Shown here: piece by piece, positions 32,835 through 41,480 of the stretch
Numbering within the stretch: position 1 is the first letter of the stretch
Layout: every line of letters begins with the position of its first letter
DNA from: a virus
Lineage: Duplodnaviria; Heunggongvirae; Uroviricota; Caudoviricetes
Length of the DNA stretch: 64,000 bases
Strand: one strand, 5' to 3'
Virus record (IMG/VR): IMGVR_UViG_3300038530_001701
The notes under the pieces: generated by a model
What the model saw: the letters and a program-made list of their open reading frames with translations, nothing else
What the model was told of the DNA's origin: nothing
The model's database searches: none
Made by a program: the position numbers and the translations under genes

Positions 32835-33171
32835 TCCTACAATGGAAGAAATCCTAGCAGCAATGCAGGAATTTACAGGTCAGGCATCTGCTGGTGGTGG
32901 TTCACTTGAGCAGTATCGGGAGATTCTTCCGATTCTTTTCAAAGAAGGTGATATTGCTACTGAAATGCTTGACGAAGTAGTTGAGAAGTTTGGGCCTAAG
33001 CTTGGTGAATACCTTGACAAAATCCGTGAGTTTATGGTTAAAGGTCAGGTCAACACTTACAAACAGTTGACTGAAGGTGGCATTTCACCGGATAATGCAA
33101 TTCGCCTGATGATTCATCAGCAAGATGTTTTGAATCAAGCTTTCAAGAATATCGAAATTAGTCGAAAATAA
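32824..33171 (+). CDS. hypothetical protein
   Basis: Likely start MANDPT at 32824 (overlaps previous stop); 116 aa. Confidence 0.45.
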   Translation: MANDPTMEEILAAMQEFTGQASAGGGSLEQYREILPILFKEGDIATEMLDEVVEKFGPKLGEYLDKIREFMVKGQVNTYKQLTEGGISPDNAIRLMIHQQDVLNQAFKNIEISRK

Positions 33172-33247
33172 TACTTGACTTAGGTTGCCTACAGCACTTA
33201 AAATACTTCAACGGTAAAGTAAGAGCAACCTGATAGTAGGAGATTAT

Positions 33248-33718
33248 ATGGAAATTGGTGATTTATTTGTTGCAACAAGACCTATTGTTAATGGATTAGG
33301 TTGTGTAAGTGCAGGTAAAGTCTTTAAGTTGGTAGAAATTCTTAAATCACAACCTTGGTATCATGCCCCCATCTACAGATTTGACCACAAAGATAGTCGT
33401 ATGGTATTCTCTACATTCTATCCTGAGAAGTGGTTTGAAGCTATGGGCGTTAACGCAAGTCAAGAACAAAAGAAGGAGAAAATTATGTACGAACAAATGA
33501 AACGAGCATTGAAATTGAAACGTGGTGAGCATATTGTTGGTAGTATCGACAAGCAAACTGGTTCGTTGAGCTTTTCAACTAATCCTAGTAACCACGGTAC
33601 AAGCTTCCACAAGGCTTTGGCAGAAGCTAAACGTCTTGCAGGTATTGAGACAGGTAAGAAATTTGTAGTAGTTGAAGTAAAAGCTATTGCATCTGCTGTC
33701 GATATCGTGGTAGAGTAA
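33248..33718 (+). CDS. hypothetical protein
   Basis: 156-aa ORF, RBS ggag. Confidence 0.45.
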   Translation: MEIGDLFVATRPIVNGLGCVSAGKVFKLVEILKSQPWYHAPIYRFDHKDSRMVFSTFYPEKWFEAMGVNASQEQKKEKIMYEQMKRALKLKRGEHIVGSIDKQTGSLSFSTNPSNHGTSFHKALAEAKRLAGIETGKKFVVVEVKAIASAVDIVVE

Positions 33719-33742
33719 CACAATCAAGTCCTCTACGGAGGG

Positions 33743-33864
33743 CTTATTGAAAGATAGCCTGTGGCCCTGCAAACTGACTACAAAACTTGAGCGGGGTATG
33801 TGGTTAGCTCTGAGTCAGCAGAGAAAGGTAGCCCAATCTGCCTCTCAGGCTGTCTTTCAATAAG
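33743..33864 (+). ncRNA. ~120-nt structured element closed by a 19-bp inverted repeat (cttattgaaagatagcctg / caggctgtctttcaataag)
   Basis: Near-perfect 19-bp IR (one G-U) enclosing GC-rich internal hairpins; non-coding; first element of the structured-RNA cluster. Confidence 0.3.
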
Positions 33865-33868
33865 TTTT

Positions 33869-33925
33869 AGGATGATTACAGCAATTTATACACTAGACTC
33901 TTAATCTAACCAGTATATTCATCCT
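33869..33925 (+). ncRNA. minimal hairpin carrying conserved UUACAGCAAU motif
   Basis: aggatga-...-tcatcct 7-bp closing helix; motif ttacagcaat immediately 3' of the 5' arm as in elements A-D. Confidence 0.35.
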
Positions 33926-34096
33926 GTATAAATAGACTTTACTTTTCAACTGCTTTAGGGTACTCTGAGAATCCTAATGGGAACCGTCAGAGATAGTTAG
34001 CATAGGTTTGAAGATTGATCACTTCAAGAACTACCAAGCCCTGACAAATTCTAGATAACTGTCGATAAAAACAAAGCAGTTGAAAAGTAAAGTCTT

Positions 34097-34192
34097 AGAA
34101 TGTGTCCAGCAAACTAAAAATTTTTCCGCCGAAATTGGAAACGAAGGGTTCGACTCCCCCGTACTAGGCTAGTGGTAGCCGAAAGACATTCT
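34097..34192 (+). ncRNA. Y-RNA-like / tRNA-mimic element A (degenerate)
   Basis: Closing helix agaatgt/acattct; variant motif gtccagcaaact; T-loop-like ttcgact; D-arm-like ggc-tagtggtag-cc. Confidence 0.4.
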
Positions 34193-34215
34193 GTTTAATA
34201 AATGAGGAGACAATC

Positions 34216-34674
34216 ATGAGTAAGATTCTTGAACAAATTAAAAAAGATCGCTTGCAAGCACGTAAAGATCGTGATACCTTTACTGCTGTAACACTGACAA
34301 CTCTGCTTGGTGAAGCATCACCTTCAGGTAACGATACTATCAGCGATAAGGAAGTTCAGAAAGTGATTGAAAAGTTTGCAAAGAACCAGCGTTCAATGCT
34401 TGCTCATGATCTTTCAACACTTCAGCGTAGTGAAATCAACCGAGAGTTGAAGATTTACGAAAAGTATTTGCCAAAGCAGTTGACAGAGGATGAGATTAAG
34501 CGTATTCTCTGCACTGAATACACAGTATATGTGGATGGAAATGGTAAAGGAAACCTTAACGTAGGCTCTGTCATGCGTTATCTGTCTAGCAACTATGCTG
34601 GACAATACGATGGTAAGGTGGCAAGTAAGGTTGCAAAAGAATTTGTTGACAGCATCGGCAACGGTGTGGTTTAA
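34216..34674 (+). CDS. hypothetical protein
   Basis: 152-aa ORF with strong RBS (aggag), between structured RNA elements. Confidence 0.45.
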   Translation: MSKILEQIKKDRLQARKDRDTFTAVTLTTLLGEASPSGNDTISDKEVQKVIEKFAKNQRSMLAHDLSTLQRSEINRELKIYEKYLPKQLTEDEIKRILCTEYTVYVDGNGKGNLNVGSVMRYLSSNYAGQYDGKVASKVAKEFVDSIGNGVV

Positions 34675-34682
34675 TAAGCTTT

Positions 34683-34790
34683 AGGTTCACTTACAGCAAT
34701 AACTTACTAAAGCCAATCGGGAGGGTTAGGTTCGATTCCTAAATAGGTAGTGTAGTGGTAGCACGCCCGACAAAAAGTAAATGTGAACCT
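34683..34790 (+). ncRNA. Y-RNA-like / tRNA-mimic element B
   Basis: 8-bp closing helix aggttcac/gtgaacct; bulge ttacagcaataa; ttact/agtaa helix; tcggg/cccga helix; canonical T-arm ttagg-TTCGATT-cctaa; D-arm gtg-tagtggtag-cac. Confidence 0.5.
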
Positions 34791-34820
34791 GCTCTAATTT
34801 AAACTAAGGAGGTATCAACC

Positions 34821-35150
34821 ATGAACGAACAAATAAGTCTAGAAGGTTTCAAGAAATTTGTTTCAGAACAACCTGAAGGTGAATCGATTGATCATTGGGG
34901 TGGTGGCTGGTGTTCTTGTGCAGTCGGTGCCTATGTTAAAACAACCCTTGGAAAACCTGTTGACAAATCTTGGGATGATGAGGTACAGTACGTATCAAAG
35001 TCGTTCATGAGAGACACTGATAAGGTTCCCTCTGGTTTAGAGAGACTTCTTGCAAACGCTGACCAAGCCACTTATAAGTGTCCAACATACGGAGCTTTGA
35101 ACAAACTACTGGAAAAATATACAGTAGTAGAGGAATTTGAAGTAAGTTAA
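34821..35150 (+). CDS. hypothetical protein
   Basis: 109-aa ORF with RBS aaggagg. Confidence 0.45.
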   Translation: MNEQISLEGFKKFVSEQPEGESIDHWGGGWCSCAVGAYVKTTLGKPVDKSWDDEVQYVSKSFMRDTDKVPSGLERLLANADQATYKCPTYGALNKLLEKYTVVEEFEVS

Positions 35151-35155
35151 GAATT

Positions 35156-35286
35156 AGATTGATTACAGCAATCCTACTATTCCATCCAAAGGACGAGACG
35201 CCGTGTTCGATTCCGGCACTCCCCGCCAATTAAACTATGTTATGGGGAGTTGGTGTAGTGGCAGCACACGTAAGTAATATCAATCT
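35156..35286 (+). ncRNA. Y-RNA-like / circularly permuted tRNA-like element C
   Basis: Closing helix agattgat/atcaatct; bulge tacagcaatcc; T-loop ttcgatt; acceptor-like 7/7 complementarity actcccc (3') ... ggggagt (5') with encoded discriminator+CCA (gCCA); D-arm gtg-tagtggcag-cac. Confidence 0.55.
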
Positions 35287-35305
35287 GTTGAACTAGGAGC
35301 TTATT

Positions 35306-35524
35306 ATGAAAAAATTGACTGTAGAGGTTTATGAAATTCACGAAAAACTGCCGGAATATGAGTGTGAGAATGTTTTGGTATTCACAAGTCATTTTCTAAA
35401 AGGTGTAGACGCATTTTATCAAGATGGCAAGTTTTGGTTGGATGATGAACTTGATACGTTTTTCAAGGAAGATACAATAATTGGTTGGTGTTATTACCCA
35501 AAAAAGGAACAAATTATTAAATAA
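35306..35524 (+). CDS. hypothetical protein
   Basis: 72-aa ORF with RBS. Confidence 0.4.
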   Translation: MKKLTVEVYEIHEKLPEYECENVLVFTSHFLKGVDAFYQDGKFWLDDELDTFFKEDTIIGWCYYPKKEQIIK

Positions 35525-35529
35525 GTTTT

Positions 35530-35658
35530 AGATTCACTACAGCAATTCTTACTAATGGGGACTGAAGGTCGCTGGTTCGAATCCAGCCCTGCCGCCCAAC
35601 TAACGATATGCGGCGGGTAGCTCAGTGGTAGAGCGTCAGTATAAAGTAATGTGAATCT
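35530..35658 (+). ncRNA. Y-RNA-like / circularly permuted tRNA-like element D (best-formed)
   Basis: Order 5'->3': closing helix agattcac (pairs gtgaatct at 35651); bulge tacagcaattc; ttact/agtaa; anticodon-stem-like actga (pairs tcagt at 35636); variable aggtc; perfect T-arm gctgg-TTCGAAT-ccagc; acceptor 3' cctgccg + c + CCA; 12-nt linker; acceptor 5' cggcggg; ta; D-arm gctc-agtggta-gagc. Confidence 0.6.
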
Positions 35659-35672
35659 GTTAAATAAAAGTT

Positions 35673-35705
35673 TGCTTACAGCACAAAATTTTGCTAAAGT
35701 AAGCA
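35673..35705 (+). ncRNA. small hairpin containing the TTACAGCA motif just upstream of the vWA gene RBS
   Basis: tgcttac-agcacaaaattttgctaaa-gtaagca, 7-bp stem. Confidence 0.3.
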
Positions 35706-35733
35706 TTATCGCAAACTGAAAGGAGGAAACAAT

Positions 35734-37146
35734 ATGTCTAGACTAATTAAAGGTATTCAGCAAGGCAACGCAACAGCACGTACTGCTAACGGTGCCAAAA
35801 CTCATGCAACCTCACACAATGCCTGTGTAGACTTGTTTGGTGTTGTTGGTTCAGCACGTAACATGGATAAGGGTACTCTGGTACGTATGTTTGATAACGC
35901 ATACGGTGAGAATCCTGAAGTAGCTGTACGTATCATGCAGTGGCTTCGTGATGTTCGTGGTGGTGCTGGTGAGCGTCAAGCTTTCCGTAACCTGTTCGCT
36001 GATCTGATCGAAAACCATCTGGAAATTGCCAAGCGTGTTGTGGTGAAAGTTCCTGAGCTTGGTCGTTGGGATGATGTTCTGGTTGCTGTTGGTACTCCTT
36101 TGGAGCCTGAAGCATTTGAACTGATTCGTGCAGGTCTGAACACACCTGAAACTGCTGGTCTCTGCGCTAAGTGGATGCCGCGTCAAGGTGAAGTAGCTTA
36201 CAAGCTGCGTAAAGCATTCTCTATGACTCCGAAAGGCTGGCGTAAGATGCTTGTAAGCCTCTCTAACACTGTTGAGCAGAAAATGTGTGCAAAGCAGTGG
36301 CATGAGATTGAGTACGGCAAACTGCCTTCTAAGGCTGCTGCAATGTACCAGAATGCATTCAAGCGTAACGACGAGGCACGTTACAACCGTTATGTAGAAG
36401 GTTTGCAAAAAGGTACTGAGAAAATCAATGCCGGTGCGATTTTCCCTCATGATGTTGTAGTGTCTGCACGTAAGGGTAATGATAAGGTTGCTACTGAACA
36501 GTGGAAGGCTCTGCCAAACTACATGGAAGAATCTGGTGAGAACATCTTGCCAATGATCGATGTATCTGGTAGTATGTCTTGGACTAATGTCGGTGGTAAT
36601 CCGAACCTGACTTGCCTTGACGTTGCTCTGGCTCTTGGTATCTATACCTCTGAGCGTATGGGTGGAATGTTTGCAAATCACTACATTTCATTCTCTGAGC
36701 GTCCTGTACTTGGTAAGGTTCAAGGTACTACCCTGAATAGCCGTGTACATAACGTAATGGGTAAGCATGTTGGTTACAGCACTAACTTCCAAGCTGCTTT
36801 TGAGTTGATTCTGCGAACAGCGGTTGACAACGATCTGGCACAGGAAGAAATGCCAACTATGATTCTGGCTCTGTCTGATATGGAATTTAACGCTGCTGGT
36901 CGTGGTAATACTAACTTCCAAGCAATCAAGCGTAAGTTCGAAAATGCAGGCTACAAGATGCCTAAGTTGGTTTTCTGGAATCTGAATGGTCGTGAAGGTA
37001 ACATGCCTGTCACTGTTCATGATTCAGGTACAGCACTGGTTAGCGGGTTCTCGCCTGCAATCCTGAAGTCTGTACTTTCAGCGAAAACTGTAACTCCGGT
37101 TGATATTATGCTTGACACGGTAATGGTTGATCGGTACAATTTCTAA
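35734..37146 (+). CDS. vWA-domain protein (MIDAS DVSGSM) with N-terminal alpha-helical domain; candidate Ro60/TROVE-like RNP protein
   Basis: 470 aa; MIDAS motif LPMIDVSGSMSW followed by vWA-like beta-alpha pattern; Ro60 = TROVE + vWA architecture; directly downstream of tRNA-mimic RNA cluster; strong RBS aaaggagg. Confidence 0.55.
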   Translation: MSRLIKGIQQGNATARTANGAKTHATSHNACVDLFGVVGSARNMDKGTLVRMFDNAYGENPEVAVRIMQWLRDVRGGAGERQAFRNLFADLIENHLEIAKRVVVKVPELGRWDDVLVAVGTPLEPEAFELIRAGLNTPETAGLCAKWMPRQGEVAYKLRKAFSMTPKGWRKMLVSLSNTVEQKMCAKQWHEIEYGKLPSKAAAMYQNAFKRNDEARYNRYVEGLQKGTEKINAGAIFPHDVVVSARKGNDKVATEQWKALPNYMEESGENILPMIDVSGSMSWTNVGGNPNLTCLDVALALGIYTSERMGGMFANHYISFSERPVLGKVQGTTLNSRVHNVMGKHVGYSTNFQAAFELILRTAVDNDLAQEEMPTMILALSDMEFNAAGRGNTNFQAIKRKFENAGYKMPKLVFWNLNGREGNMPVTVHDSGTALVSGFSPAILKSVLSAKTVTPVDIMLDTVMVDRYNF

Positions 37147-37153
37147 ACCTGAA

Positions 37154-37191
37154 GCCCTCTTGAGTAATTCAGGAGGGCATTTTTTCGTTTT
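37154..37191 (+). terminator. rho-independent terminator
   Basis: gccctc-ttgagtaattcag-gagggc hairpin + attttttcgtttt. Confidence 0.6.
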
Positions 37192-37932: not shown

Positions 37933-40077
37933 ATGCGATTGGATACAGCACGAGAAGAAACTATCACCAATCTGAGCGGTTCACAGAAGTTCAAGATGAA
38001 TGCCTCTGCAAAGGCTTTCCAGATTCTTTCTTCTGGCATCTATGAGCGTAAGATTGAAGCTATTGTTCGTGAGCTTTCATGCAATGCGTATGACAGTCAC
38101 GTAATGGCTGGTAAGGCTGATGTGCCTTTCCGTATTCAACTGCCGACACCTATCAATGACTTCATCTTTGCCATTGAAGATTTTGGTGTAGGTCTGTCTG
38201 AAGATGAAGTTTACAATGTTTATACAACTTACTTTGAGTCTACCAAAACCGACAGCAATGATGTTATTGGTGCTTTGGGCCTTGGTTCTAAGACTCCTTT
38301 CAGCTACACTGACAGCTTCACTGTCAAGGCTCGTAAGCATGGTAAGGAATGTGTGTTCTCAGCCCAAATCAGCGCCTCTGGTGAGCCTGAAGTGGTTAAG
38401 ATGTACGAACGTCCGTGGAACGGTGAAAATGGCGTAGAGGTCTCTGTAGAGGTCGCCAGCAAAGACGTTACTGAGTTCCGTAACTGTGCTGACAAGGTAC
38501 TTAGCTGGTTTGATGTTAAGCCAGAATGTAACCGTGATCTTTGCTTTGATATTGAAGCAGACGCTGTTGCAAATGTTCGTCAATACGGTTATCATCTGGA
38601 ACCTAAGCAGGGTTTTGGTCGTTCTGTTGACTGTAAGGTTGTTATGGGCAATGTTGCCTACGACCTTAACCTGAAAGACCTGAAGGTTGATGATCAATCT
38701 GACACTGGAAAGTTCATTACGCAACTTTACAACATGCGCGCTGATGTTTACTTCTCTATTGACATTGGCGATGCTGATGTGGCAGCAAGTCGTGAAACTC
38801 TGTCTTTGGATGATAGAACCAAAGAAAATTTGATTCAACGTCTTGATTTTATTCGCACAAACTTTGAAGCAACTACCATTGCCAAAGTAGGTAGCTTTGC
38901 GAATGTTATGGAAGCTTACAACAAGTTGACTTCCTATGAGCGCAGTGTGGTTATGGACTACACTATCAATGGGTTTTCTATCGCAGACCTTCGTACTCGT
39001 CGGGGTTGTATCCGTACTTTCGTTGGCCTTGCTGATCAGGATAATCCAACAGCAACCGAACTTGAAGTTAGAAAAATTCTGGAAGACTATGACATTGCTA
39101 TCTATGGTAACTTTGGTAGCTGGAGGACTAAGCCACGCTCTAAGCGTGAAGTGTCCACTGACTATGGCAATCTCATGGAAAGTGATTACGTAATTCCTGT
39201 GGTCATTAACGACTGTGAACGTAAGATCGGTCTTAAAGATGCTCTGATGAATAACAGCAACCTTCGTGACAAGGTTGTGGTTATCTCAGACAAGAAAACA
39301 ACCTTGACTGCTGATCTTGAAAAGGCGCTTAACTTCTTGACTTTCAACAGCTTTAAGGTAATCTATGCCTCAAGCTTTTGGGATGGTAAGCTGAGTAATA
39401 CTCGCTCAAACACTGGTGGTTTGGCAGAAGAAACTGTTAAGTGTAAGGTAATGACAAAAGGTAGCCGTTATTTTGTCAATAAAAAGGTTGACTTGTCTTC
39501 AGAAAATAAGGCAAAATGGGCTTATGTTGATTCAGGGTCTTATTTCTTTGACGTAGAGTTCTCTGATAAGATTCGCAACACAATGTCTGACAGTGAACTG
39601 CGTAATATCATGACTGAGCTTGACCTTGACGGTGTTATCGCTTACAATGGCAACAACAAAGGTAAGGTAATTCGCATCCTTGGAGAGTCACAGGATATGG
39701 CAAAGCTTATTGAAGCTAACGCCAGTAAAGCTTGCTACCTTCATGCTCAAACTGTCGATGTTATGAAGAACATGCATGAAAGACGTTACATGATCTTTGA
39801 AGCTTATGAGAGCATGTATAATAGCTTGACTCAGCTACCTACAACTGGTAAAGTACAATGCTCTAAGATTCGATATGAGCGTGACTACTCTACTCATGTA
39901 GACACTCGTAAGCTTGAACAGGCTATCGAGAAACGTAAGGAAGTTTTCGCAGAGCAAATTAAAGTTATTGTTCAAAACAGTCCAATGTTGGACGAACTGT
40001 TGACAACACACGGATTTAACGATAAGATTATTCCTGAAGTCAGACAGTACATCAAAATGAAAAGGAAGGGGGTTTAA
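37933..40077 (+). CDS. rIIA: rIIA-like protein (GHKL/histidine-kinase-like ATPase fold)
   Basis: 714 aa; N-terminus (NLSGSQKFKMNASAKAFQILSSGIYERKIEAIVRELSCNAYDSH.. GLGSKTPFSYTDSFTV) closely parallels T4 rIIA ([54 protein letters not shown]). Confidence 0.75.
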   Translation: MRLDTAREETITNLSGSQKFKMNASAKAFQILSSGIYERKIEAIVRELSCNAYDSHVMAGKADVPFRIQLPTPINDFIFAIEDFGVGLSEDEVYNVYTTYFESTKTDSNDVIGALGLGSKTPFSYTDSFTVKARKHGKECVFSAQISASGEPEVVKMYERPWNGENGVEVSVEVASKDVTEFRNCADKVLSWFDVKPECNRDLCFDIEADAVANVRQYGYHLEPKQGFGRSVDCKVVMGNVAYDLNLKDLKVDDQSDTGKFITQLYNMRADVYFSIDIGDADVAASRETLSLDDRTKENLIQRLDFIRTNFEATTIAKVGSFANVMEAYNKLTSYERSVVMDYTINGFSIADLRTRRGCIRTFVGLADQDNPTATELEVRKILEDYDIAIYGNFGSWRTKPRSKREVSTDYGNLMESDYVIPVVINDCERKIGLKDALMNNSNLRDKVVVISDKKTTLTADLEKALNFLTFNSFKVIYASSFWDGKLSNTRSNTGGLAEETVKCKVMTKGSRYFVNKKVDLSSENKAKWAYVDSGSYFFDVEFSDKIRNTMSDSELRNIMTELDLDGVIAYNGNNKGKVIRILGESQDMAKLIEANASKACYLHAQTVDVMKNMHERRYMIFEAYESMYNSLTQLPTTGKVQCSKIRYERDYSTHVDTRKLEQAIEKRKEVFAEQIKVIVQNSPMLDELLTTHGFNDKIIPEVRQYIKMKRKGV

Positions 40078-40079
40078 TT

Positions 40080-41480
40080 ATGGCCGTAACAATCGTATCA
40101 AATGAAGACAAGGTAGAAATGCTGTACTGCTTTACGCAGCATGAGGACACTCTGACCTCTATCGGTGAGGACTTTGGAGTGAGTCGAAAAACTGTTCGCC
40201 GCTGCATTGACGAGGTTAATAAATTCCTCGCTGGAATTCAGGTAGGTGATACTATCAATCTGAAGACTGATGAGGGGCTTCTGGAAGTCACTGTAGCTCT
40301 CGAAGACAAAGAGCTTGAAGACACTATGCCTGTAGCTGTTCGCTTCCCTGATGGTGTTGTGGACTATGTAGAACTTCATCAGCTCATGGATGGTGAGCAA
40401 ATGAACGAAGTGGCTGAACGTGTCACTGAAGAAGTTGAAGCAAGTGAAATTGTAGAGACAGTTGCCAACAAAGGTCTGTCTGTAGGTGATAGTGTACGTA
40501 TCCGTAAGGACTCTCACTTCTATGGTGATGGTTATGGTAATCCAATCGATCAAGTCGGTACGGTTGCCTCAATAGAAAACGGAGTTATTCTGCCAATACT
40601 TGTACGTTGGGAGGAAGACGGTCTTAACAGCTACGATGAATCTGATCTGTATGTTGTTGAACCTGAGCCTGAAGTTGAGGAAGTTACTGAAAACGCTCAG
40701 TATTTTGTAACTGCTCCACAGGATTCATTGACAATTGTTCGCATTGATCAGGACACTGGCGAAGTTAGTCAGCGTCAAACAAACAAACACAATGAGAACT
40801 TTGGCAATCTTCGTGATATGATCAAAGCAGACCAGTCACAAGAATGTCTGAAAGTTGTCTACGAGGCTCTTGACACCACACGTATGCTTGAGTCATACTC
40901 TGTTGGTCGGGTTAAGGTGAACCCACAAACTGAAAGTGTTGTGTTTGTTCGTCAAGATGGTTCAGAACGTGCAGTTCCAGACGACATTGCAATGGACATT
41001 ATCACTACTGTTCGTGAATATGGTCGTGACAGTGGCGAGAAACTTGTTAAGTTCCTTGACAAGCTTATGACTAACGTGAGCTTCAAAGCTATCGAAGGTC
41101 TGTATCGCTTCATGAAGCACAACTGTATCGAAATCAATGACGATGGTTCAATTCAGGCTTGGAAAGGTGTTGCAGAAGACTTGCATAGCATTAGCTCAGG
41201 TAAGATTGCAAACAGCCCAACTTGCCCTGTTCGTGCAGATGGTCGAATCGACAACAGCGGTTTCGGAACTGAGATTCGAGTAGATCGCAGTGAAGTTGAC
41301 GACGACCCTGATGCTACCTGTTCACATGGTCTGCATGTTGGTAATCGCAGCTACGCAGAGAGCTTTGGTCGCACCCTACTTTCTGTTAAGGTAGAGCCAC
41401 AGGACGTTGTAGCTGTTCCAAAGGATTACAATGGTGCTAAGATGCGCTGTTGTGCATACACTCCGCTCTTTGCGGTTTAA
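40080..41480 (+). CDS. rIIB: rIIB-like protein (extended, 466 aa) with N-terminal HTH
   Basis: C-terminal region AWKGV..DDDPDATCSHGLHVGNRSY..VKVEPQDVVAVPKDYNGAKMRCCAY parallels T4 rIIB YAWKVV..DDDTQTCSRGLHVCSKSY..VKVHPRDVVSIPIDYNDAKMRTCQY; immediately follows rIIA. Confidence 0.75.
   Translation: MAVTIVSNEDKVEMLYCFTQHEDTLTSIGEDFGVSRKTVRRCIDEVNKFLAGIQVGDTINLKTDEGLLEVTVALEDKELEDTMPVAVRFPDGVVDYVELHQLMDGEQMNEVAERVTEEVEASEIVETVANKGLSVGDSVRIRKDSHFYGDGYGNPIDQVGTVASIENGVILPILVRWEEDGLNSYDESDLYVVEPEPEVEEVTENAQYFVTAPQDSLTIVRIDQDTGEVSQRQTNKHNENFGNLRDMIKADQSQECLKVVYEALDTTRMLESYSVGRVKVNPQTESVVFVRQDGSERAVPDDIAMDIITTVREYGRDSGEKLVKFLDKLMTNVSFKAIEGLYRFMKHNCIEINDDGSIQAWKGVAEDLHSISSGKIANSPTCPVRADGRIDNSGFGTEIRVDRSEVDDDPDATCSHGLHVGNRSYAESFGRTLLSVKVEPQDVVAVPKDYNGAKMRCCAYTPLFAV

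Follow-up and report, generated by a model that had tools for sequence, protein, structure and literature searches.

In a 64,000-nucleotide (nt) stretch of DNA from a tailed phage (Caudoviricetes; IMG/VR record IMGVR_UViG_3300038530_001701), here called the window, we identified seven paralogous structured RNAs on the plus strand between positions 33182 and 35718, all in the same orientation as the gene that follows them, which codes for a 470-amino-acid (aa) protein combining an N-terminal helical repeat with a C-terminal vWA domain. The RNAs form a family with a covarying terminal stem, they are linked to homologs of this gene across phages, and the modeled protein adopts the Ro60 fold. On the basis of sequence, structure prediction and genomic linkage, from which binding and function are inferred throughout, we propose that the products of this region probably form a ribonucleoprotein system of the Ro60/Y-RNA type, in a lineage separate from canonical Rsr/YrlA. 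The original prediction for this DNA had seen Y-RNA-like RNAs, several of them carrying a tRNA-like domain of the YrlA type, beside a Ro60-like protein; that core reading is upheld by an Rfam YrlA match, by the response of the tRNA finder ARAGORN to a re-permuted element and by the co-occurrence and co-orientation of RNAs and gene in many phages. By curated thresholds, RNAs and protein alike fall outside YrlA and TROVE, and they are best described as a distinct, widespread variant working like them.

A family of RNAs with a common base

The seven elements, designated Y0 to Y6, share a base in which a terminal helix, opening with an A-U and a G-C pair followed by 5 to 6 covarying pairs, leads into an asymmetric loop on the 5′ strand, (U)UACAGCAA(U), a second helix and an unpaired G on the 3′ side (CUG). 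Each element starts with AG and ends with CUG, and its first 7 to 9 nt pair with its last, as in AGGATGA/TCATCCT or AGGTTCAC/GTGAACCT. The closing helix and the conserved 5′-strand bulge that had been read from the letters are thus present, with a helix of 7 to 9 base pairs (bp); at the DNA level the loop is (T)TACAGCAA(T), placed directly after the 5′ strand, with TACAGCAC in Y0 and Y6 and the degenerate form CCAGCAAA in Y2. A further UUACU/AGUAA helix, originally described as shared, is found as CTTACT/AGTAA in Y3 and Y5 and shortened to TACT/AGTA in Y4. Minimum-free-energy (MFE) folding reproduces the closing helix in all seven elements.

An alignment (A2) that combines 3 short elements of the window with 17 from other phages, 20 in all, has the invariant positions A, G, TACAGCA and CTG; its 7-bp closing stem is paired in 100% of the sequences, and 5 of the pairs covary. 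RNAalifold predicts the same stem, and its covariation score of 0.778 compares with 0.183 for shuffled alignments and at most 0.22 for slid registers. A covariance model built from A2, R1, was run over both strands of the 64 kb without filters and retrieved exactly seven sites, all on the plus strand, the next match having an E value of 1.3. The four tRNA-like elements, which are absent from the seed, were recovered at E values of 4e-4 to 0.12. The module is therefore multiplied, as had been claimed, but in seven rather than four to six copies, Y0 lying beyond the interval 33743 to 37146 that had been delimited. The elements and the protein gene are as follows.

33182..33232, plus strand: Y0, short module RNA without a tRNA part; AGGTTGC / cTACAGCAC / TACTT..AAGTA / GCAACCTG; R1 46.1 bits; Rfam Dicty_Class_I_RNA 20.5 bits over its full length
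33869..33926, plus strand: Y1, short module RNA; AGGATGA / TTACAGCAAT / TATAC..GTATA / TCATCCTG; R1 56.4 bits; Rfam Class I model 18.3 bits; ortholog at L003 4255-4325
34097..34193, plus strand: Y2, module RNA with the degenerate motif; hairpin 34123-34141, T-like arm 34146-34158, D-like arm 34167-34180; R1 25.8 bits, E 0.004, non-seed; orthologs in L003, L085, L086 and L087 retain ATACAGCAAAC
34683..34791, plus strand: Y3, module RNA; inner 5-bp stem TCGGG/CCCGA, T arm 34726-34742, D arm 34750-34764, without acceptor hairpin; R1 18.9 bits, E 0.12, non-seed; ortholog at L003 5489-5596, 85% identical
35156..35287, plus strand: Y4, module RNA; V hairpin 35185-35193, bulged-U T arm 35200-35217, D arm 35253-35267; R1 30.7 bits, E 4e-4, non-seed; ortholog in L003 95% identical
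35530..35659, plus strand: Y5, module RNA whose permuted tRNA body is complete (Rfam YrlA match, ARAGORN on re-permuted constructs); R1 19.8 bits, non-seed; orthologs at L085 4318-4458 and L086 3796-3938
35669..35718, plus strand: Y6, short module RNA; part of the 5′ leader of the Ro60-like gene; AGTTTGC / TTACAGCAC / ... / GCAAACTG; R1 45.4 bits; Rfam Class I model 18.5 bits
35734..37146, plus strand: Ro60-fold protein gene, 470 aa; N-terminal helical repeat (DUF2828) and C-terminal vWA/MIDAS (metal ion-dependent adhesion site) domain (DUF7788)

Here and below, L followed by a number denotes a comparison locus from another phage. The reading of the sequence, together with feature mapping, bears out the statement that every gap in this run of genes carries structured elements and that four of them are tRNA mimics: the gaps between the open reading frames (ORFs) at 33248-33718, 34216-34674, 34821-35150 and 35306-35524 are all occupied. 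The last element does abut the vWA gene, as had been noted: the ribosome-binding site (RBS) of the 470-aa gene, AAAGGAGG, lies at 35719-35726, immediately after the end of Y6.

Linkage of the RNAs to the gene across phages

Across a comparison set of 84 loci around homologous genes (843 kb), R1 yielded 71 matches at E<=1 in about 54 loci; all 71 are on the strand of the gene, mostly within 1 kb of it. The strand asymmetry and the non-seed matches of R1 are free of any circularity in the choice of its seeds. Seven close relatives of the window phage carry one to six copies upstream of the gene. An independent pattern scan that did not demand the AG/CUG termini gave a density within 100 nt of the gene of 1.9 per kb downstream and 1.1 per kb upstream, as opposed to 0.07 to 0.1 per kb elsewhere, a 10- to 25-fold enrichment, with 0 to 1 matches on the opposite strand near the gene. 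Copies in the leader, at most 100 nt upstream of the gene, come from 9 sources in the pattern scan, and R1 adds further ones; leader copies near the RBS occur in many lineages, that of KVP40 included.

Outside the lineage of the window, modules in phages of Listeria, Staphylococcus, Campylobacter, Enterococcus and Mycobacterium were found by manual and pattern scans. Three stand beside the gene in Listeria phage LP-083-2, three in Staphylococcus phage S-CoN_Ph11, two in Campylobacter phage F355 and one in Enterococcus phage VRE9_2, and mycobacteriophage Lolly9 has three in tandem after its "Ro-like" gene, the middle one being YrlA-like (Rfam YrlA, 37.7 bits). In Shigella phage Silverhawkium (L001), four modules, one of them with tRNA-like cargo, lie in the gaps of a tRNA array just after the gene. 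In Vibrio phage KVP40 (L002 4464-4503), a stem GACATT / TTACAGCAA / ... / AATGTC surrounds the RBS and start codon of the homolog, the start codon falling within the 3′ stem strand of the module. KVP40 also has a 248-nt element on the same base after a tRNA-Ser gene (L002 1094-1341). Among 94 loci, 34 have canonical tRNA genes to the sides of the gene, and all 191 of these tRNA genes are on its strand; none of the 34 loci belongs to the lineage of the window.

Two candidate connections to T4 were considered and rejected. The RNAs rnaC and rnaD of the T4 tRNA cluster give no R1 match and lack the module. The reverse complement of the motif, TTGCTGTAA, read as a T4-type MotA box, would face against all the genes, and the presence of the module in phages of Gram-positive bacteria and in actinophages also speaks against this reading.

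The arrangement raises the alternative that the elements act in cis on a polycistronic transcript, as processing or punctuation signals, stabilizers or translational operators, rather than as trans-acting ribonucleoprotein RNAs. Their presence in every intergenic gap of co-oriented genes with no terminator-like site on the plus strand between them, the placement of Y6 against the RBS and of the KVP40 stem over the start codon, and the perfect 24-bp duplex of a further element among them (S2, see below) are what such a role would entail. But in other phages the modules follow the gene or sit within tRNA arrays, positions that offer no ORF for them to regulate; a conserved loop sequence and elaborate tRNA-like cargo would be superfluous in a processing hairpin; and the architecture is that of the abundant, stable YrlA and Dictyostelium Class I RNAs. 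We consider a purely cis-acting function unlikely. Y6 as an operator is compatible with it and already forms part of the ribonucleoprotein proposal that we favor.

The 470-aa protein has a Ro60 fold

Profile searches assign the protein to Pfam DUF2828 (E 6e-30) and DUF7788 (E 6e-47), PHROGs labels it "RNA-binding protein," and a profile search against PDB places TROVE proteins at the top, with an E value of 0.038. An AlphaFold2 model built with 33 homologs (predicted local distance difference test score 86.5, predicted template modeling score 0.87) was compared by Foldseek with PDB, as the original prediction had suggested; the ten best matches are all Ro60, over the full length, at E values of 1.7e-8 to 6.5e-6 and with an identity to the solved Ro60 structures of 12 to 16%. 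Among the 33 homologs, the MIDAS residues D276, S278, S280, T350 and D382 are invariant, as are many arginines and lysines of the helical domain. In the model, the likeness to Ro60 is thus structural, comprising a helical repeat followed by a C-terminal vWA domain. Of the domain composition first ascribed to the protein, TROVE plus vWA, the vWA/MIDAS part and the fold hold, whereas by sequence DUF2828 and DUF7788 stand in the place of TROVE.

Homologs occur in 710 of 50,697 phage records, with hosts including Escherichia, Salmonella, Vibrio, Mycobacterium, Listeria, Staphylococcus, Campylobacter, Enterococcus and Bacillus, and the structure search shows that giant viruses of protists carry them as well (cf. 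10.1101/033464). Plants are reported in published annotations to possess DUF2828 proteins. The PADLOC library of defense systems has no match for the protein. Homologs in mycobacteriophages bear the annotation "Ro-like RNA binding protein," and overexpression of one so described, LeBron gp53, is moderately toxic. In the literature searched, DUF2828, PF11443, UCP015417 and DUF7788 are mentioned only incidentally, and the only functional report that we found for a DUF2828-type protein concerns gp130 of phage Bas63 (Felixounavirus), which has a Ro60-like structure, is encoded upstream of a tRNA array and counters the Ppl defense (PhageMaP preprint, PMC11482910). Judging by genus, synteny and the published description, gp130 very probably belongs to the same family as the 470-aa protein.

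The Ro60 fold, the "Ro-like" annotation of the mycobacteriophage homologs and the fact that YrlA is the best Rfam match for both Y5 and the Lolly9 element could also mean that the locus is a canonical Rsr (TROVE)/YrlA locus too divergent for sequence models, without any separate family. This appears improbable: DUF2828 and DUF7788 are separate Pfam families, the protein lacks a TROVE match and is at most 16% identical to the solved Ro60 structures, the base motif is UACAGCAA rather than GNCGAA(N)G, and most members have no tRNA-like domain, those that match YrlA scoring about half the gathering threshold.

The tRNA-like cargo of Y2 to Y5

On the common base, Y2 to Y5 carry T and D arms like those of a tRNA, arranged in a permuted order. 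The T arms are TTAGG-TTCGATT-CCTAA in Y3 and GCTGG-TTCGAAT-CCAGC in Y5, which conform to the canonical T loops on 5-bp stems that had been described; the T arm of Y4 has a bulged U, and that of Y2, GGG-TTCGACT-CCC, is only 3 bp long. The D arms are GTG-TAGTGGTAG-CAC, GCTC-AGTGGTA-GAGC (Y5), GTGT-AGTGGCA-GCAC and GGC-TAGTGGTA-GCC (Y2). Y5 is the full cloverleaf of a class I tRNA, permuted, with the common base replacing its anticodon loop. In Y4, the arms are accompanied by a V hairpin and a 7-bp acceptor hairpin whose loop opens with GCCA, and Y3 and Y2 have T and D arms alone, reduced in Y2. The parts of the two most complete elements, all on the plus strand, are as follows.

35561-35565 and 35636-35640: Y5, anticodon-like stem, 3′ strand ACTGA and 5′ strand TCAGT
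35566-35570: Y5, variable loop AGGTC
35571-35587: Y5, T arm
35588-35594 and 35611-35617: Y5, acceptor, 3′ strand CCTGCCG and 5′ strand CGGCGGG
35595-35598: Y5, C73 and CCA
35599-35609: Y5, 11-nt spacer, followed by G-1 at 35610
35620-35634: Y5, D arm, in the context of U8 A9 and G26
35218-35224: Y4, 3′ strand of the acceptor
35225-35228: Y4, GCCA, followed by an AT-rich spacer
35244-35250: Y4, 5′ strand of the acceptor

The Rfam YrlA model matches Y5 at 38.2 bits (E 4e-6), and ARAGORN calls a tRNA in 71 of 358 constructs in which Y5 was re-permuted and given an artificial closing loop; re-permuted elements from two other phages (L001d and L025) are likewise called. Neither result extends to the remaining tRNA-like elements of the window: Y2, Y3 and Y4 have no Rfam YrlA match, and when re-permuted, they receive no ARAGORN call, so that the YrlA relationship foreseen for these RNAs is found by the Rfam model in Y5 below the gathering score and in Y2 to Y4 not at all. 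The RNAalifold consensus of 10 tRNA-like orthologs and paralogs contains the closing, T and acceptor stems, with compensatory changes at 12 of 19 pairs, and the Y4 orthologs in L003, L086 and L087 show compensatory changes in the acceptor stem. Together with the pair counts for the short elements, this provides the covariation in related phages that had been named as a check. Canonical colinear tRNA genes, whose presence would have spoken for a simpler explanation, are absent: ARAGORN finds none in the 64 kb, the Rfam tRNA model has no match even at E<=10 in 33000-36500, and at gathering thresholds Rfam returns nothing for the window.

In the acceptor loops of Y4 (35225-35243), Y5 (35595-35610) and their orthologs in L003, L085, L086 and L087, a discriminator base and CCA are followed by a 9- to 15-nt AT-rich spacer, and Y5 and two orthologs have a tRNA-His-like G-1:C73 pair. 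The encoded discriminator, CCA and spacer suggest derivation from tandem tRNA genes and possible cutting into two-piece RNAs. Another conserved cargo on the same base, GAACCTTTCTGGAGGGGAAAGCAAAAACTCGCCAAAA, is not tRNA-like and has no Rfam match; it occurs at L006 1260-1379, L008 4247-4352, L014 144-286, L021 3128-3238, L052 4673-4779 and L056 4735-4840.

Circularly permuted tRNA genes occur in some red algae (Cyanidioschyzon merolae), and Y4 and Y5 might be such genes, with transcripts that mature into functional tRNAs through joining at the base and cleavage in the acceptor loop. Y5 does possess every element of a class I tRNA except the anticodon loop and is accepted by ARAGORN on re-permutation, the discriminator base, CCA and spacer follow the acceptor 3′ strand in both elements and in their orthologs, and the window and its close relatives are without canonical tRNA genes. 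We nevertheless regard this reading as very improbable, as some 40 nt of conserved helix, loop and helix, identical to the base of the tRNA-less elements, stand where the anticodon loop should be, and neither a 7-nt anticodon loop nor a bulge-helix-bulge motif can be drawn. Further, Y2 and Y3 have no acceptor stem, and the versions in Felix-O1-like phages and mycobacteriophages have a short acceptor loop and no CCA.

Other features of the locus and its relatives

Besides Y1 and Y2, the gap at 33719-34215 holds two structured elements without the ACAGCAA motif, S1 and S2. These and the remaining features of the unit are listed below.

33743..33865, plus strand: S1, four-way junction of 123 nt without the ACAGCAA motif, class unassigned; 19-bp closing stem and three hairpins
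33934..34097, plus strand: S2, long hairpin without the ACAGCAA motif; perfect 24-bp closing duplex around about 115 nt
34216..34674, plus strand: YqeY/GatB-tail-like gene, 152 aa, between Y2 and Y3; Pfam YqeY E 3e-15; PHROG 1460
34821..35150, plus strand: lineage-specific ORF, 109 aa; no Pfam or PHROG match; homologs in L003, L086 and L087 only
35306..35524, plus strand: ORF, 72 aa; no Pfam or PHROG match; no homolog among the fetched loci
37154..37178, plus strand: intrinsic-terminator-like hairpin with a T run at the end of the unit (terminator scan)

S1 has an MFE of -53.1 kcal/mol (z -5.96), none of 200 shuffled sequences being equally stable; it has no Rfam match, and its conservation is limited to 70 nt in the relative L088. 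S2 (MFE -56.2 kcal/mol, z -6.61) has a counterpart at L003 4324-4492 that is 94% identical, compared with 83% identity between the Ro60-like proteins of the same two phages; it may serve for RNase III cleavage or represent a noncoding RNA of its own. The small ORFs between the elements had been put forward as possible cofactors, a suggestion that the tblastn comparison does not sustain: they are confined to close relatives, with none in the other 87 loci compared, and the YqeY gene is present in 4 of 7 close relatives. By sequence, the small ORFs are lineage specific and not general cofactors. As a free-standing YqeY/GatB-tail domain, the 152-aa protein would be a reasonable lineage-specific binder of the tRNA elbow, given what is known of GatB. 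Downstream of the locus lie homologs of rIIA (37933-40077) and rIIB (40080-41480); since the closest rIIA of a cultured phage is only 28 to 45% identical, the window represents an uncultured phage lineage.

Among the relatives, HNH homing-endonuclease genes stand between RNA elements at L004 3098-3628 and 5472-5990 and at L085 4472-4990. Tiny coding sequences (CDSs) annotated "hypothetical protein" at L092 4519-4608 and 4738-4866 (S-CoN_Ph11) and L094 2856-2972 (VRE9_2) overlap ACAGCAA modules (L092 4532-4740 and L094 2887-2951) and are probably misannotations, with consequences for the annotation of several deposited phage genomes in which such CDSs overlap module RNAs. Listeria phage LP-083-2 has a ROOL RNA match among its tRNA genes (L091 1471-2022; 87.4 bits against a gathering score of 99.1; E 3e-16), about 650 nt upstream of its three ACAGCAA modules and DUF2828 gene, and a gene for an RtcB ligase 1.3 kb downstream. 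Phage transfer-messenger RNA genes (85 to 88 bits) lie at L023 8729-9220 and L033 10751-11168, a few kilobases downstream of the DUF2828 gene and modules.

That the elements are chance matches or remnants of mobile or repeated DNA, for instance associated with homing endonucleases, and have no RNA function can be practically dismissed in spite of the HNH genes between them in L004 and L085 and a copy number varying from 1 to 7 among relatives, as the stems stay paired by covariation while their sequence changes, the strand bias is strict (71 of 71) and the module is conserved in phages of different bacterial phyla.

Proposed mechanism and significance

Ro60 binds a conserved bulged helix made by the ends of Y RNAs (PMC4201824, PMC12135203), and by analogy, the common base described here would be the protein-binding site, a role that its linkage to the gene also favors. 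The 470-aa DUF2828 and vWA protein would accordingly represent a divergent Ro60, and the seven paralogous RNAs, predicted to be co-transcribed with its gene, are its proposed ligands. The apical part would constitute interchangeable cargo: Y0, Y1 and Y6 have a plain hairpin and Y2 to Y5 a permuted tRNA body, in which the order of T arm, acceptor hairpin and D arm, with the base in place of the anticodon loop, corresponds to the architecture of YrlA. Such cargo could offer the tRNA elbow and acceptor end to tRNA-recognizing factors, serving as a tether or as a decoy that titrates them. For Y4 and Y5, cleavage by RNase P and 3′ trimming into two-piece RNAs are plausible because NCCA and a spacer are encoded in the acceptor loop, and the position of Y6 against the RBS of the protein gene suggests translational autoregulation. 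The particle probably functions in phage RNA or tRNA metabolism or in counterdefense, the anti-Ppl protein of the Felix-O1 type being a presumed homolog.

Several observations weigh against this proposal. About 30 of the 84 loci have no R1 match within 5 kb of the gene, and the seeds of A2 were picked partly for stem complementarity, which makes its pair counts partly circular. On the protein side, Pfam TROVE (PF05731) has no match even at E<=10, and the sole NCBIfam match, to Rsr (NF041674), scores 14.4 bits against a cutoff of 900 and covers the MIDAS segment only. On the RNA side, the Rfam YrlA match in the window is confined to Y5, and its 38.2 bits fall below the gathering score of 69. 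Finally, Bas63 gp130 on its own, expressed from a plasmid or from T7, counters Ppl, an activity independent of phage RNAs (PMC11482910); given this independence, the RNAs may regulate the protein or extend its action.

Should the proposal hold, the large DUF2828/DUF7788 family would gain an RNA partner, Ro60/Y-RNA particles would comprise a second lineage, and RNA candidates would be at hand for the antidefense protein Bas63 gp130. The combination of a constant base with variable cargo provides natural variants with and without each tRNA element side by side, which should ease the study of a long-standing question, the function of the tRNA-like domain in Y RNAs.

Comparison with known RNA-protein systems

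One close parallel is the YrlA/Rsr system, in which a bacterial or, in some cases, phage RNA with a permuted tRNA-like domain is encoded by a gene adjoining rsr (RF02553; PMC4201824). As in that system, a long stem formed by the RNA ends surrounds a permuted V, T arm, acceptor-like hairpin and D arm, an arrangement present here in Y4 and Y5; the RNA genes neighbor that of a vWA protein with the Ro60 fold, with examples in phages; and there are paralogous RNAs per locus, some without the full tRNA part (cf. YrlB). The systems differ in the protein, which here is DUF2828/DUF7788 and not TROVE by sequence, and in the base, which has UACAGCAA and AG...CUG termini instead of GNCGAA(N)G, the sole GNCGAA string in the elements being GCCGAA in the hairpin loop of Y2, which is lost in the orthologs. 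In contrast to YrlA, most members here lack a tRNA domain, and up to 7 copies are set amid ORFs or tRNA genes, one of them in the leader of the protein gene itself. Neither Rfam 15 nor the literature searched yielded a description of the ACAGCAA RNAs, though some elements of cluster L mycobacteriophages may be listed as YrlA in Chen et al. 2014. The arrangement had been thought undescribed, which appears to hold for these RNAs but not for multiplicity as such: two to four Y RNAs per Ro60 locus are already known (PMC4201824), and the novelty does not lie there.

In Thermus phage phiLo, two Yrl RNAs with a CGAA motif are encoded upstream of Ro60 and bound by it (PMC12135203; PDB 9KOP, 9L5Y). The phiLo locus shares with the present system a phage protein of the Ro60 fold with Y-like RNAs encoded upstream, but the phiLo protein is of the TROVE family, and its RNAs, Yrl1 and Yrl2 only, have no reported permuted tRNA-like body and no ACAGCAA motif. 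The Bas63 gp130 gene resembles the Mooglevirus locus of Silverhawkium (L001) in lying directly upstream of a tRNA array. The authors of the gp130 study guessed that some of the annotated tRNAs were Y RNAs and identified no RNA (PMC11482910); in Silverhawkium, by contrast, our candidates occupy the gaps between the tRNA genes rather than being the annotated tRNAs themselves. Metazoan Y RNAs bind Ro60 through a bulged helix of the RNA ends, recruit other factors through a variable loop and come as two to four paralogs, but they show no sequence similarity to the RNAs described here, have no tRNA-like domain and are encoded by genes unlinked to that of the protein.

The base also bears a close resemblance to the Class I RNAs of Dictyostelium (RF01414), which are about 42 to 65 nt long, comprise many paralogs and have been termed "unique to dictyostelid social amoebas" (PMC7919456), with an Arabidopsis Class I-like candidate reported at a covariance model score of 40 (PMC7919456). 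They start with AAG, end with CUGU and have a 6-bp covarying terminal stem with the motif CCUUACAGCAA by its 5′ strand (PMC7919456), as exemplified by DdR-21, GTTGACCTTACAGCAAACC...GTCAACTG. The Rfam Class I model matches ten phage modules over its full length, each exactly on the module, at 18.3 to 27.5 bits, short of the gathering score of 41.5: in the window at 33183-33232, 33870-33926 and 35670-35718, and elsewhere at L013 10148-10200, L033 6728-6789, L069 6689-6748, L004 4228-4279, L086 2055-2110, L091 2666-2721 (Listeria) and L092 4533-4595 (Staphylococcus). The two groups have in common (A)AG/CUG(U) termini, a short covarying terminal stem with (CC)UUACAGCAA directly 3′ of its 5′ strand, a variable interior, many divergent paralogs and their length, the phage short forms being 50 to 70 nt; the phage modules do not conserve the CC prefix. 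Class I RNAs differ in being eukaryotic, with a DUSE promoter (RNA polymerase II/III type) about 60 nt upstream, whereas the phage loci are presumably read by bacterial or phage promoters, and in that their known direct binder is the RRM protein Rnp1A, with no Ro60-like partner known. In part of the proteome supplements of Kjellin 2021, a motif search gave a single DVSGSM match, an unrelated vWA protein (PMC7919456). We treat the connection as a lead, not a result, and only tentatively suggest that the DUF2828 branch among Ro60-like proteins might have had ACAGCAA-module RNAs as its ligands since ancient times and across kingdoms. In that case, the Class I RNAs would belong to this group and act as Y RNAs for a Ro60-like partner, and the phage arrays would exemplify a general design of one protein-binding base with exchangeable cargo, including tRNA mimics. 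If true, this would supply a hypothesis for the Class I RNAs, which are abundant and developmentally important and whose mechanism has been unexplained since 2004.

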